In this document: piece by piece, positions 3,749 through 8,420 of the stretch
Position numbering within the stretch: position 1 is the stretch's first letter
Layout of the letters: each line of letters opens with the position of its first letter
IMG/VR virus record: IMGVR_UViG_2526164690_000029
DNA length: 14,328 nucleotides
DNA from: a virus
Lineage: Duplodnaviria > Heunggongvirae > Uroviricota > Caudoviricetes
Strand: one strand, 5' to 3'
The notes under the pieces: generated by a model
What the model saw: the letters and a program-made list of their open reading frames with translations, nothing else
Told to the model about the DNA's origin: nothing
Database searches by the model: none
Position numbers and translations under genes: made by a program

Positions 3749-3817
3749 GGATACACATCTTGTCATATGATCAAATGGTTTCGCGAAAAATCAATAATCA
3801 GACAACAAGATGTGCGA
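3749..3817 (-). ncRNA. IS10 RNA-OUT antisense RNA (position inferred from IS10 architecture)
   Basis: Established IS10 biology: pOUT drives an ~69-nt antisense RNA covering the transposase start. Coordinates are placed by offset from the IS10 outside end, not from independently recognised motifs. Confidence 0.4.
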
Positions 3818-5018
3818 ACTCGATATTTTACACGACTCTCTTTACCAATTCTGCCCCGAATTACACTTAAAACGACTCAACAGCTTAACGTTGGCTTGCC
3901 ACGCATTACTTGACTGTAAAACTCTCACTCTTACCGAACTTGGCCGTAACCTGCCAACCAAAGCGAGAACAAAACATAACATCAAACGAATCGACCGATT
4001 GTTAGGTAATCGTCACCTCCACAAAGAGCGACTCGCTGTATACCGTTGGCATGCTAGCTTTATCTGTTCGGGCAATACGATGCCCATTGTACTTGTTGAC
4101 TGGTCTGATATTCGTGAGCAAAAACGACTTATGGTATTGCGAGCTTCAGTCGCACTACACGGTCGTTCTGTTACTCTTTATGAGAAAGCGTTCCCGCTTT
4201 CAGAGCAATGTTCAAAGAAAGCTCATGACCAATTTCTAGCCGACCTTGCGAGCATTCTACCGAGTAACACCACACCGCTCATTGTCAGTGATGCTGGCTT
4301 TAAAGTGCCATGGTATAAATCCGTTGAGAAGCTGGGTTGGTACTGGTTAAGTCGAGTAAGAGGAAAAGTACAATATGCAGACCTAGGAGCGGAAAACTGG
4401 AAACCTATCAGCAACTTACATGATATGTCATCTAGTCACTCAAAGACTTTAGGCTATAAGAGGCTGACTAAAAGCAATCCAATCTCATGCCAAATTCTAT
4501 TGTATAAATCTCGCTCTAAAGGCCGAAAAAATCAGCGCTCGACACGGACTCATTGTCACCACCCGTCACCTAAAATCTACTCAGCGTCGGCAAAGGAGCC
4601 ATGGGTTCTAGCAACTAACTTACCTGTTGAAATTCGAACACCCAAACAACTTGTTAATATCTATTCGAAGCGAATGCAGATTGAAGAAACCTTCCGAGAC
4701 TTGAAAAGTCCTGCCTACGGACTAGGCCTACGCCATAGCCGAACGAGCAGCTCAGAGCGTTTTGATATCATGCTGCTAATCGCCCTGATGCTTCAACTAA
4801 CATGTTGGCTTGCGGGCGTTCATGCTCAGAAACAAGGTTGGGACAAGCACTTCCAGGCTAACACAGTCAGAAATCGAAACGTACTCTCAACAGTTCGCTT
4901 AGGCATGGAAGTTTTGCGGCATTCTGGCTACACAATAACAAGGGAAGACTTACTCGTGGCTGCAACCCTACTAGCTCAAAATTTATTCACACATGGTTAC
5001 GCTTTGGGGAAATTATGA
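3810..5018 (+). CDS. tnp: IS10 transposase (402 aa)
   Basis: ORF MCELDILHDSLYQFCPELHLKRLNSLTLACHALLDCKTLTLTELGRNLPTKARTKHNIKRIDRLLGNRH... matches the Tn10/IS10 transposase as recalled. Confidence 0.95.
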   Translation: MCELDILHDSLYQFCPELHLKRLNSLTLACHALLDCKTLTLTELGRNLPTKARTKHNIKRIDRLLGNRHLHKERLAVYRWHASFICSGNTMPIVLVDWSDIREQKRLMVLRASVALHGRSVTLYEKAFPLSEQCSKKAHDQFLADLASILPSNTTPLIVSDAGFKVPWYKSVEKLGWYWLSRVRGKVQYADLGAENWKPISNLHDMSSSHSKTLGYKRLTKSNPISCQILLYKSRSKGRKNQRSTRTHCHHPSPKIYSASAKEPWVLATNLPVEIRTPKQLVNIYSKRMQIEETFRDLKSPAYGLGLRHSRTSSSERFDIMLLIALMLQLTCWLAGVHAQKQGWDKHFQANTVRNRNVLSTVRLGMEVLRHSGYTITREDLLVAATLLAQNLFTHGYALGKL

Positions 5019-5031
5019 GGGGATCTCTCAG

Positions 5032-5040
5032 AGCATGATA
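5032..5040. repeat. IS10 target-site duplication, right copy (AGCATGATA)
   Basis: Identical to 3694..3702. Confidence 0.9.
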
Positions 5041-5639
5041 CCGATAAAAATCGCCCATAAGATCTTATCGAAATTGTAACCGCCAGCGCAATCGCTGCTG
5101 ACAGTAGCAAAAGAGGTACCTGAATCTTCTGTCTCAATATAGAAAACTCAATAATTGCCGGCACAAACAATAATTCCACAGCAAAATAAAGGCGAAATAC
5201 ATTTAGCTCTTGCATAGAATGTTTTCTTTTCACTGCGAAAAAGAATACAACACCAATACCCAACCGATAAGAAATATAGCAATGACGATAACTGCAAAAA
5301 ATAAACTTCTGGCAACATCATCAACACCTGCACCTACAATCCACCATGGGAAGCCGTAGTAAAAAGAAGTACCCCATCCATAGAAATAAGCACTCCCCCA
5401 TCCAAGGCATCCCATGTAGGCAATAAAAAGTGAAGAACTCCTGAGCAGCGCACCATCCTTCATAACCACCCCAATACAAGATGATAACATTGGCTTACAA
5501 CTCATAACAAAAGCAATTCAATGCCGTCAAGAGGTTACAGGCTAAAAAAACTCTATTACATTGCAGTCAGCATGTTTACTACACAAATACAATTCAGAGC
5601 ATAAAAACTACTCGGCGGCAGGTTATTGAGACTCATCAA

Positions 5640-5705
5640 TGACATGTAAAAAACGCCCATTATTGGTGTCAAGTTTCCCCAAAGTTATTCAAAAAGTCAA
5701 TATTA
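5640..5705 (-). promoter_or_regulatory. Late promoter pR'-like region downstream of Q
   Basis: Minus strand reads TTGACTTTTTGAATAACTTTGGGGAAACTTGACACCAATAATGGGCG, resembling the lambda pR' region (TTGACTTATTGAATAAAATTGGGTAAATTTGACT) as recalled. The -35 TTGACA lies at 5667..5672; the -10 is less clear. Confidence 0.4.
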
Positions 5706-5742
5706 TGCCGTTAATATGTTGCCATCCGTGGCAATCATGGCG

Positions 5743-6366
5743 CTAACGTGTGATCGCATTCAAAATGTTGTCTGCGATTGACTCTTCCTTGTGGCATTGC
5801 ACAACCAGAGCGTCATACAGCGGCTTAACAGTGCGTGACCAGGTGGGTTGGGTAAGGTTTGGGATTAGCATCGTCACAGCGCGATATGCGGCGCTTGCTG
5901 GCATTCTTGAATAACCGACGCCTTTACATCTTCCGCACTCTTTCTCAGCAACTATCCCCCACTGCTCTGTTTTGGCTATATCAACCGCACGGCCTGTACC
6001 GTGGCAATCTCTGCATCTTGCGCCCGGCGTAGCGGCACTACGGCAATAATCCGCATAAGCGAATGTTGCGAGCACTTGCAGTACCTTTGCCTTAGTATTT
6101 CCTTCGAGCTTTGCCACACCACGGTATTTCCCCGATACCTTGTGTGCAAATTGCATCAGATAGTTGATAGCCTTTTGTTTGTCGTTCTGGCTGAGTTCAT
6201 GCTTACCGCAGAATGCAGCCATTCCGAATCCGGCTTGTGATTGCGCCATCCCCATAGCAGCCATCACATCAGTACCAGAAAGAGAGTCAGAAGCCGTAGC
6301 CCGTGGTGAATCGCTCATCATCGGGCTTTTTGGCGAATGAAATTTAGCTACGCTTTCGAGTCTCAT
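5743..6366 (-). CDS. Q: Late-gene antiterminator Q (lambda type)
   Basis: 207-aa [113 protein letters not shown]... with the zinc-binding CRDCHGTGR…CGRCKG motif; near-identical to lambda Q as recalled. Confidence 0.95.
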
Positions 6367-7027
6367 GCGCCTTCTCCCTGTACCTGAATCAATGTGAGGT
6401 TTCCGCAGAACACTGCGCCAGTATCGATATACATCTGGTTGGCAAATTTGAGTGGTTTCACTGCTGGCGTATGACCAAAGATGAACGTGTCCGCGCCTTT
6501 GATTTCTTTCACGATCCCGTCTTGTGAGTTGCTGATTCGTTCGCGGTTCCAGATTACCTGCTGATGATCAACTGGCTTTCCAAACTCGTATTTATCACAA
6601 GGATAATCGGCGTGGCAGATGACATATTTTTTCCTTTACTCACCAGTTCGATGATTAACGGAAGTTCATCTGCTTTATGGGCAAGAGCTTTAGCCAGAAT
6701 TTCTTTGTCGTAATCGAGATTAAAGAACCAGCCACCGCCATTAAGCAGCCAGTGATTGACGTTTCCACGCTCTGATAAGCCATCAATCATCATTTGCTCA
6801 TGGTTTCCACGTACAGCTCTGAACCAGGGGAATGTGATTAATTCCAGGCATTCTACGTTCTCTGTACCGCGATCAACCAAATCGCCCACCGAGATAAGCA
6901 GGTCTTTTTTGGTGTCGAATCCTATCGTCTCCAGTTTTTTCATCAGGTTCGTGTAGCATCCGTGCAGATCGCCAACTACCCAAATATTTCGGTATTTGCT
7001 GCCATCAATTCTTTCGTAGATATTCAT
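6363..7027 (-). pseudogene. ninI: Ser/Thr protein phosphatase NinI (lambda PPase, orf221 type), frameshifted at a poly-A tract
   Basis: [29 protein letters not shown]…GDLVDRG…GNHE carries the metallophosphatase motifs and matches lambda PPase. The frame breaks after ELVSK at the A-run near 6627..6635, and the C-terminal part ([11 protein letters not shown]…IQVQGEGA) continues in another frame to the stop overlapping the Q start. Confidence 0.85.
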
Positions 7028-7626
7028 GCAACCTCACTTCTGCTGTTTCGCAGTTTTTTAAGTTTCTGTTGATACTCCGCCTTGATGGCCCTGCACTCTT
7101 CGACAGTCCAGCGATAGCGGTTATGGTTTGATTCGATTTCCTCTACTGCTTCCTGCCCGATGCGGCTAATCAGTTCGACGCGATACGGAACGAGATTTCC
7201 GCTTTTGTGCTGGTTGCACACCACGCATTGCTTGTGAATATTGCGTTCATCAAATCGGAGTTGAGGTGCCGCAGCAGTTGTCCGGTAATGTCCGGCATCC
7301 CACTGAGCAGACGTGAGCGTTCCGCACGAGATACATGGTAAGTCGCGGTCTCTTTCTCTGATGAAGGCGTTTACGGCTTGTTGGGCTTGTTTAATCCAGT
7401 AACTGCGGGGCTTTAAGGCGAGTTTTCGAATCTTCAGTTTATCTTTCTGTTTCTGCTCCTCTCGTCGTAGTTTCTTCTCTGCTGCTTTTTCCGCTTTTTC
7501 GCGTTCTTTACTTCGTCGTTCGAGTGCTATCTTGGTTCCACAAATCTCATTACACCAATATTGATTTTGATATTTTGGTATAAACCATTCATTGCAACAT
7601 TTACATTTCCTTCGATAGATTCGCAT
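7024..7626 (-). CDS. ninG: NinG (Rap) protein with a replaced, AT-rich-coded N-terminus
   Basis: [103 protein letters not shown]… matches lambda NinG from GTKIALERR onward. The start ATG at 7626 has an AAAGGAG Shine-Dalgarno site inside the 3' end of the upstream HNH ORF. Confidence 0.8.
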
Positions 7627-8167
7627 AAGTGCTCCTTTCGTTGCCGGAAAAATCACCGTAATACTTATCTCGGGCTTCTTCAGCAACTAGTACCGCTAAC
7701 TCCAGATCATCAAAGCATCCGAAGTGTTTACTCTTGCCATGGAATCCTAGCCTAACATTCCATTTTTTCTGTCGTTTGTGCCAAGTAACCCCTCTGCAAC
7801 CTGATTTGCTATTCTTTCGGATCCTTATATTTCTTGAATTTTCTATTGGCAGGCATTCTCTTAAATTTTCTGGCCTATTGTCGGTCCTAATTCCATTAAC
7901 GTGGTCAATTTGACCAGCAGGCCAACGATTATGAGTTATGTAAAAAACTAAGACGTGAGTTTTATATCTACGCCCATCTATCATGATCATTGAATAACCG
8001 TTGGAATCAAAAGTTCCAGCAACACTATTTAATGCTATCCTTCCCTGAGTGGGAACTTTCCATCTAAATACCCCGGTAGATTTATCGAAACTTAGTAACT
8101 CAAATATCCTTTTAACAGTTAAATCTTCTCTTTTACGGTTACATCGTCTTCGCGCTGGTTTAGCCAT
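7601..8167 (-). CDS. HNH endonuclease with C-terminal AP2-like domain, fused in frame to the first 9 codons of ninG (homing-endonuclease-like insertion)
   Basis: Starts MAKPARRRC (the lambda NinG N-terminus, with its native ribosome-binding site), then [21 protein letters not shown]…[19 protein letters not shown] (HNH motif) …[52 protein letters not shown] (AP2-like). The coding sequence is AT-rich compared with the flanking lambda-like DNA. Confidence 0.8.
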
Positions 8168-8366
8168 CGCCTTCTTCCTCCGTAATGGTTTTCTGAATTT
8201 GGCCACCTGAACAGAGCTCACCAAAGCTATGGATGTCGGTATTTCCACAATACCAAGATGGCGAAAATAACTGCATGATAAGCCTCAGGGAAAAGGGAAG
8301 ACACTACCCCCGATAATTCAGAAACAAATCGAAATACATGAACTAAAGAAAAAACCACAACAAACA

Positions 8367-8420
8367 GAAATAGAAATAGAAATAGAAATAGAAATAGAAA
8401 TAGAAATAGAAATAGAAATA
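8367..8420. repeat. Perfect hexanucleotide microsatellite (GAAATA)9
   Basis: Nine uninterrupted tandem GAAATA units, 54 bp, in the intergenic region between the minus-strand ninG/HNH block and the plus-strand island ORFs. Confidence 0.95.

Follow-up and report, generated by a model that had tools for sequence, protein, structure and literature searches.

A candidate homing endonuclease cassette with a captured start codon in the 5' end of the lambdoid phage gene ninG

The window analyzed here is a 14,328-nucleotide stretch of DNA from the Caudoviricetes virus record IMGVR_UViG_2526164690_000029, in which the 5' end of a lambdoid ninG (rap) gene is occupied by a gene for an HNH-AP2 endonuclease. 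We propose, with a probability of roughly 0.6, that this gene encodes a free-standing homing endonuclease of the HNH (I-HmuI-type) plus AP2 kind, and that it has spread by 'intronless homing'. The anatomy of the locus, the family membership of the protein, the specificity of the cassette for a single site and a population signature of recent spread across backgrounds, all of which were observed, are described in the following paragraphs.

In this part of the window all genes are carried by the minus strand (Table 1). The endonuclease open reading frame (ORF) opens on a lambda-type island, which consists of the last 10 nt of ninF with a Shine-Dalgarno (SD) site, the ninG ATG, nine ninG codons and 2 nt; as read from the sequence, this island is the present translation start of the HNH gene. 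Homology to lambda ends at the junction CGATGTAA/CCGTAAAAG, which is identical in 63 out of 63 carrier loci checked, and begins again at TGTGGAACC (position 7542), from where the window (7542..7024) is identical to lambda 42525-43043 at 503 of 519 nt (97%). Between these flanks there is no lambda homology: 64 bp of lambda ninG have been swapped for a 596-bp cassette that comprises the HNH body, a new SD site and ATG, and 28 foreign ninG codons, and that has a GC content of 0.376 vs 0.489 in the rest of ninG. The initial annotation of this DNA, which had been made from the letters and their ORFs, let the HNH ORF run from the native ninG start and its first nine codons into foreign HNH-AP2 sequence, and both the lambda match of the island and the domain matches of the protein agree with this description. 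It had also proposed an in-frame insertion; the joining of a foreign HNH body to the ninG start stands, but the event was a replacement and not a pure insertion.

The ninG gene restarts, as had been noted in the initial annotation, from a new ATG with its own SD site inside the HNH 3' end, and the restarted gene and the HNH ORF overlap by 26 nt. The HNH ORF has its own stop and ninG its own start, and there is thus no intein-like in-frame continuity between the two. The chimeric ninG product belongs to the NinG/Rap family (PF05766), with a near full-length profile match from residue 4 and with the Cys ribbon C8, C11, C25 and C29 present. Its new N-terminus is 4 codons shorter than that of lambda and differs from it at about half of the residues; however, the zinc-ribbon positions C8, C11, F15, P17, Q22, C25 and C29 are kept. 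What had been taken for a recoded ninG N-terminus is therefore an AT-rich homologue of the displaced segment and not a synonymous recoding of it. A ninG length of 200 or 203 aa was found in 56 of the 64 carrier loci with an identified ninG start.

Individual loci depart from this arrangement. The ninG gene is truncated at 35 aa in two of them (L042 and L046), and a metagenome contig (PPYF01105303.1, locus L158) has a 283-nt deletion inside ninG (query 751-1033 of the window segment 8300..7000). In Escherichia coli PK8241 (NZ_CP080139, locus L003), an element of the IS3 insertion sequence family at 4550-5763 lies between the HNH 3' end and the ninG restart, so that the two genes are separated and the C-terminus of the HNH protein is altered (191 aa). 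The HNH ORF of one further locus (L067) is frameshifted.

Table 1. Coordinates of the features of the ninG locus in the window
Feature	Position	Strand	Details
HNH-AP2 endonuclease ORF	7601..8167	minus	ATG at 8167, stop at 7601; 188 aa; starts MAKPARRRC with the ninG start codon
Lambda-type island (ninF last 10 nt with SD, ninG ATG, nine ninG codons, 2 nt)	8139..8180	minus	40/42 nt identical to lambda 42419-42460
20-nt imperfect tandem direct repeat over the left junction (AGACGATGTAAC-CGTAAAAG / AGAAGATTTAACTGTTAAAAG)	8109..8149	minus	Tandem Repeats Finder (TRF) score 52
Foreign cassette, 596 bp	7543..8138	minus	HNH body, new SD and ATG, 28 foreign ninG codons
HNH (His-Me finger) catalytic core, residues 68-107	7847..7966	minus	Pfam HNH_3; motif D88-H89...N101...N110
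AP2-type DNA-binding domain, residues 123-171	7655..7801	minus	Profile and model
SD site AAGGAG of the ninG restart	7632..7637	minus	Within the HNH 3' end, 5 nt upstream of ATG 7626; read from the sequence
Foreign AT-rich ninG 5' segment, 28 codons	7543..7626	minus	28.6% GC (84 nt); in place of lambda codons 1-31
Chimeric intact ninG (rap), 200 aa	7024..7626	minus	PF05766, 1.9e-83, residues 4-194

The left junction is spanned by an imperfect tandem direct repeat. Among 1000 dinucleotide shuffles, one yielded any such repeat in the interval 7601-8200 and none yielded it at the junction. The founding event may have left the repeat as a footprint, or the repeat may belong to a recognition sequence.

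The catalytic core of the HNH protein matches the Pfam family HNH_3 (4.2e-11; 42.7 bits vs a cut-off of 24.8), and the protein matches PHROG 99, 'HNH endonuclease', at 1.4e-71. The I-HmuI-type His-Me finger nucleases have a beta-beta-alpha-metal core in which a His general base and Asn residues are conserved. Aligned with 12 homologues, the protein shows no variation at the residues D88, H89, N101, L102, R103 and N110, and the profile of this alignment matches I-HmuI (1u3e) at 1.2e-7 with the DH...N...N positions aligned. For the C-terminal region, the Pfam AP2 score of 22.2 bits is under the cut-off of 33.3; the alignment profile matches the solved AP2 domains 7wq5 (7e-11), 7et4 (4e-7) and 1gcc (3.5e-3). 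In the AlphaFold2 (AF2) model of the protein, which has a mean predicted local distance difference test (pLDDT) score of 86.7, this region consists of three strands and a helix (E127-130, E135-142, E145-152 and H155-173). A Foldseek comparison of the model with the PDB placed 1u3e at the top, followed by AP2 domains, with a template modelling (TM) score of 0.67 and a root-mean-square deviation (rmsd) of 1.3 Å for 1gcc. The combination of HNH_3 and AP2 is a recognised homing-endonuclease architecture (PMC5714182). The profiles and the model thus place the protein, which has an intact nuclease motif, in the I-HmuI-type HNH_3 plus AP2 homing-endonuclease group. Most homologues begin a few residues before the 'L..LL.Y....G.F.W' block; the 15 residues found there in the window protein would fit a captured leader.

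A scan of the interval 6900-8700 with Rfam gave no match at E<=1, by which an intron-borne nuclease gene was ruled out; the HNH gene is thus free-standing. The terminase-associated HNH protein of cos phages was rejected as well, since the gene sits in the nin region between ninF (or a moron) and ninG. An own promoter of the HNH gene was likewise rejected: no sigma-70-like site was found on the HNH strand, and the gene is therefore presumably expressed from the nin operon transcript.

The cassette is widespread in E. coli. At 99% identity or more, it was found at 571 places in 538 out of 5426 complete E. coli genomes, all of them chromosomal, and all matches listed in this search are annotated as an HNH endonuclease adjoining NinG. 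The lambda-type 3' part of ninG is present at 2438 places in 1169 genomes; thus about 23% of the lambda-type ninG copies carry the cassette, and about 77% are empty. The exact HNH protein is encoded on at least 1000 contigs, mainly from E. coli and some from Salmonella, and two sequenced Stx1 phages, AU6Stx1 and SH2026Stx1, carry the cassette. A degenerate scan with the new ninG N-terminal peptide returned eight metagenome matches, all of which represent the same cassette.

For the population analysis we used 57 IMG/VR loci together with annotated loci. The comparison of ninG loci with and without the insert, which the initial annotation had named as a check, revealed a presence/absence polymorphism at one exact ninG site: the 63 carriers share one junction, and the site is conserved in 81 empty loci, the examined empty alleles varying at the insertion site at few positions only. 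Among the carrier and empty loci examined, the AT-rich ninG start was never seen in the absence of the nuclease gene.

This single site is embedded in diverse surroundings. Upstream of the cassette, 40 of the 63 carrier loci have a moron gene and 23 have ninF; for instance, ninF lies immediately upstream in ETEC1730 and PK8241, and an AT-rich gene of 590 aa on the opposite strand occupies this place in ECO2947 and AU6Stx1, as well as in the window. The carrier loci also differ in their Q type and in the presence or absence of ninH, and their contexts form at least 11 clusters upstream and at least 5 downstream. The upstream context bears on the length of the HNH product. In the moron context, the HNH frame is open upstream (8248-8168) to a GTG at 8248, which gives a 215-aa ORF, an alternative call that is reflected in a protein cluster of 215 aa (P0002), and the annotation of AU6Stx1 gives an HNH product of 201 aa; the ninF context permits only the 188-aa form.

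The AT-rich moron gene (PHROG 9230; 8655-10507, plus strand) replaces ninF upstream of the cassette. It encodes an intact protein of 590 aa in AU6Stx1, ECO2947 and NZ_CP077567; in the window, a 1-nt deletion at 9618 splits it into ORFs of 323 and 275 aa. In our sample it occurs only together with the HNH cassette (40 carriers vs 0 of 81 empties). The HNH gene and the divergent moron are separated by a spacer with a hexanucleotide microsatellite, AAATAG/AGAAAT, of 9.8 copies (8362-8420), which is shorter by one unit in NZ_CP077567, the closest genome.

Diversity is far lower in the cassette than in its surroundings. The copies of the cassette differ by 0-5 single-nucleotide polymorphisms (SNPs), whereas up to 56 differences occur in the adjoining 519 nt of ninG. 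In the same loci, diversity is about 0.002-0.003 for the cassette vs 0.015-0.10 for the ninG flank. Along 33 aligned loci with the moron context, diversity is 0.02-0.045 in the moron, 0.010 in the 200 nt that directly precede the ATG and 0.001-0.002 in the cassette, after which it rises downstream to 0.013, 0.033 and finally 0.08-0.10. The moron is diverse and the cassette is not; thus AT-rich accessory DNA at this locus is not low in diversity as such, and the low values belong to the cassette specifically.

The flanking polymorphisms are shared between carriers and empties on both sides. The SNPs at +9, +33, +57 and +108 from the right junction segregate in carriers and empties alike, and the SNPs at -2, -16 and -20 from the ATG on the left side are common to both, the nearest of them being located about 31 bp from the left junction. 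The right flanks of 51 carriers fall into 31 haplotypes; several of them are nearer to an empty haplotype than to that of any other carrier, and one is identical to an empty haplotype. Taken together, these data show that the cassette is young and has entered many ninG and prophage backgrounds that existed before it, and that the end-points of the exchanges lie very near its edges.

The HNH ORF is intact, with 188 aa, in 62 of 65 loci, the exceptions being one IS3 insertion, one frameshift and one contig end. Its two common SNPs are synonymous, most of the non-synonymous SNPs are rare, and the ORF looks maintained. The sharp valley of diversity over many backgrounds suggests a homing cassette in recent spread, of which such a pattern would be expected. 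The homing-endonuclease cassette of the initial annotation is thus supported in part, namely by the family of the protein, its free-standing gene, the polymorphism at one site and the diversity valley.

The following scenario would account for these observations. A single illegitimate recombination event would have joined a nuclease body to the ninG SD site, ATG and first nine codons; the same event would have brought in the AT-rich 5' end of a heterologous ninG together with the SD site and ATG belonging to it, and the swap would have removed 64 bp of the resident gene and left a complete chimeric ninG. All copies of the cassette presumably derive from this one founding fusion, since the left junction is identical in all carriers. 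The nuclease would be made in lytic growth only, from the early-right (nin) transcript and via the ninG initiation signals, and ninG would be translated from the internal SD site. When an empty lambda-type ninG is present in the same cell, either in a co-infecting phage or in a co-resident prophage, this allele would be nicked or cut by the enzyme within the 64-bp interval or close to it, and repair would copy the cassette from the carrier via the lambda-type flanks with short conversion tracts. With regard to the cleavage target, we infer that the replaced 64 bp are, or overlap, the recognition site; carriers would then be immune, because in the version that replaced this interval only about half of the codons still match.

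Several points weigh against homing as the mode of spread. The samples overlap in lineage and include many strains of Shiga toxin-producing E. coli (STEC), and the sample of empty alleles is biased towards lambda-like NinG. The polymorphism at +9 could represent a recurrent synonymous mutation and not a conversion end-point. A donor lineage was found neither for the nuclease, whose next relative is 44% identical, nor for the AT-rich ninG 5' end. Carrier and empty ninG copies are present together in single genomes, within the same chromosome (for example, in E2865), which indicates that, during lysogeny at least, the enzyme is inactive. Moreover, free recombination among lambdoid phages could carry a young neutral or beneficial insertion into many backgrounds without any nuclease drive. 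This leads to a rather unlikely alternative, according to which the cassette is a passive mosaic module of one illegitimate origin that was spread by ordinary homologous recombination and by the clonal expansion of STEC and enteropathogenic E. coli (EPEC), the HNH protein being inactive or irrelevant. Such a history agrees with the single founding junction common to all copies, with the mosaic structure of lambdoid nin regions, in which upstream and downstream modules vary freely, with the derivation of many carriers from few pathogenic lineages, and with the coexistence of carriers and empties in one genome. However, the valley is limited to the cassette, the moron only 42 bp away being 10-40 times more diverse; linkage to flanking SNPs is gone within 9-50 bp on both sides, which is tighter than occasional crossovers predict; and the ORF and its catalytic residues have stayed intact in nearly all copies (62/65), with non-synonymous changes mostly rare.

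A positive-selection sweep of an accessory nuclease, acting in competition with or exclusion of co-infecting lambdoid phages or as a recombination partner of NinG/Rap, appears quite improbable to us, although sweep-like diversity fits selection as well as it fits drive. The tight coupling to ninG, with an initiation region in common, overlapping ORFs and no own promoter found, would suit such a role, as would the nature of NinG itself, which is a His-Me finger recombination nuclease (PMC5714182). However, the large share of empty lambda-type ninG copies (about 77%) implies that most of them work without the HNH gene, the distant relatives of the protein never adjoin ninG, and the HNH_3 plus AP2 architecture is that of site-specific homing enzymes; in addition, if rivals were cut at ninG and then repaired from the carrier, the outcome would already be homing, or marker exclusion. 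Finally, we consider it hardly credible that the carrier arrangement is ancestral and that lambda-type ninG arose by loss of the nuclease gene. Nothing specific speaks for this order of events, as presence and absence alone have no direction, and it is contradicted by the sequence: the 64 bp of the empty alleles are absent from the carrier, so that a deletion cannot regenerate the empty allele, the cassette is compositionally foreign (0.376 vs 0.489 GC) and far less diverse than ninG, and the AT-rich N-terminus never occurs without the HNH gene.

Intronless homing and marker exclusion have been described for free-standing homing endonucleases of T4-type phages, such as SegF, SegG and MobE (PMC2988022). 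As in these systems, the nuclease gene at ninG is located outside any intron or intein and next to or within a conserved phage gene (PMC2988022). In the T4-type systems, carriers have a target gene that is diverged from the sensitive allele (PMC2988022); the replacement of the 64-bp interval at ninG by a version that differs at about half of its codons would fit such a pattern. Break repair from the carrier with co-conversion of the flanks is a feature of SegF, SegG and MobE (PMC2988022) and is the mode of spread that we propose for the ninG cassette; MobE is likewise an HNH enzyme. Unlike these genes, the ORF of the ninG cassette took over the SD site, the ATG and nine codons of its target, which was rebuilt with a heterologous 5' end. 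Furthermore, the T-even hosts of SegF, SegG and MobE are virulent, whereas the ninG cassette resides in a temperate lambdoid prophage, and its core is of the HNH_3/I-HmuI type with an AP2 module, as known here from sequence and model.

The closest characterised counterpart of the nuclease region is I-HmuI, the HNH nicking homing endonuclease of phage SPO1 (PDB 1u3e), which is the best profile match for this region and the best structural match overall. Common to both proteins are the His-Me finger with its DH...N...N motif and an extended beta region at the N-terminus, and their identity in the structural alignment is only about 17%. I-HmuI is intron-encoded and binds DNA through NUMOD and helix-turn-helix (HTH) modules, whereas the ninG-cassette protein is free-standing and has AP2. 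Its two-domain architecture is that of the HNH-AP2 homing endonucleases of His-Me finger group 2 (PMC5714182). The AP2 domain of this group is shared with plant ERF/AP2 factors. The nearest homologues that we found in comparison with the group are metagenomic phage proteins at other loci with 33-44% identity, and we know of no characterised HNH-AP2 member at ninG or in lambdoid phages.

Start capture has a precedent in gene 31 of Salmonella phage epsilon34, in which the N-terminus of a resident gene is fused in frame to an HNH homing gene (PMC2629481). This arrangement is the same as at ninG, and epsilon34 is also a lambdoid phage; however, gene 31 belongs to the early-left operon and to another HNH lineage, and a replacement copy of the displaced end is not reported for it. 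In Aeh1 nrdA/mobE and in T4 gene 39/60 with mobA, the nuclease gene lies within a coding region that stays functional (PMC2988022), as ninG presumably does. Those two cases give two polypeptides that have to reassemble, whereas the ninG cassette leaves nine codons behind and restores a single-chain ninG. No description of the ninG HNH cassette was found in our literature searches, and databases label its protein as 'HNH endonuclease' only.

The next closest HNH proteins are at most 44% identical to that of the window, and none was found between 99% and 44%. The homologues at 33-44% identity are free-standing genes in unrelated phage contexts; for example, one adjoins exonuclease and endonuclease I genes on a T7-like contig (L009), one adjoins a tail-fibre-like gene (L068), and one lies near terminase (L007). 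A location beside ninG for distant relatives as well was ruled out, since none of them adjoins a ninG homologue. The initial annotation had regarded the same HNH gene at unrelated loci as an argument against homing into ninG; near-identical copies are present at ninG only, and elsewhere there are only relatives of 44% identity or less. A genome scan for closer nuclease relatives gave a sole match, of 39%, in Planctomycetota.

The searches for a donor of the new ninG N-terminus were all negative. The next best match of its first 34 aa in a tblastn search of 50,697 phage records has about 60% identity, a word-indexed protein search returned fragments of the same allele only, and a degenerate peptide scan had no hit in 185,579 species-representative genomes. 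An exhaustive phmmer search with 31 aa against 1.84 billion representatives gave only matches of 38-40%, which sit in proteins with repeats of the same Cys motif that are 20-25% identical to NinG overall. With respect to the donor, we infer that the simplest source of the AT-rich ninG start would be a foreign ninG that once neighboured the nuclease gene and whose 5' end was transferred along with it, because both parts are AT-rich and always occur together, the segment is a bona fide NinG N-terminus, and known free-standing homing genes do likewise.

If the enzyme is active, the cassette would clearly exemplify intronless homing among temperate lambdoid phages, whose homing elements have, to our knowledge, received little study; if it is inactive, the cassette is an ordinary mosaic insertion. 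It lies about 1.5 kb upstream of Q and, in Shiga toxin (Stx) phages, of the toxin genes, in a region whose mosaicism shapes toxin expression, and it is carried by about a quarter of the lambda-type ninG copies in complete E. coli genomes. The locus also offers a natural test bed, in which lambda genetics can be used to measure the protection of carriers by a foreign version of the target. Tentatively, and with considerable doubt, one may go further and regard the cassette as a gene drive at work in lambdoid prophages, those with Shiga toxin among them. Upon induction in polylysogenic E. coli, it would cut the ninG of co-resident or co-infecting phages, convert them and stimulate prophage recombination just upstream of Q and stx; the combination of start-codon capture with heterologous target replacement would then be a compact 'self-immunising' design, which is not known to have been described for temperate phages.

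Other features of the window lie outside the ninG cassette. Relative to NZ_CP077567, the window has about ten single-base indels, some of which may be sequencing errors. One of them, at 6627, splits the Ser/Thr phosphatase gene (lambda NinI-like; 6363-7027, minus strand), which is an intact gene of 666 nt in NZ_CP077567. The transposase gene of the IS4-like element ISVsa5 (3810-5018, plus strand) interrupts a prophage gene downstream of Q, and the first 288 nt of a second ISVsa5 copy (14041-14328) are located at the window end, where they truncate the replication gene. By homology to NZ_CP077567, the window also contains the increased serum survival gene iss (bor-like) at approximately 1047-1341 on the plus strand, which appears to be broken by a 1-nt insertion at 1162.

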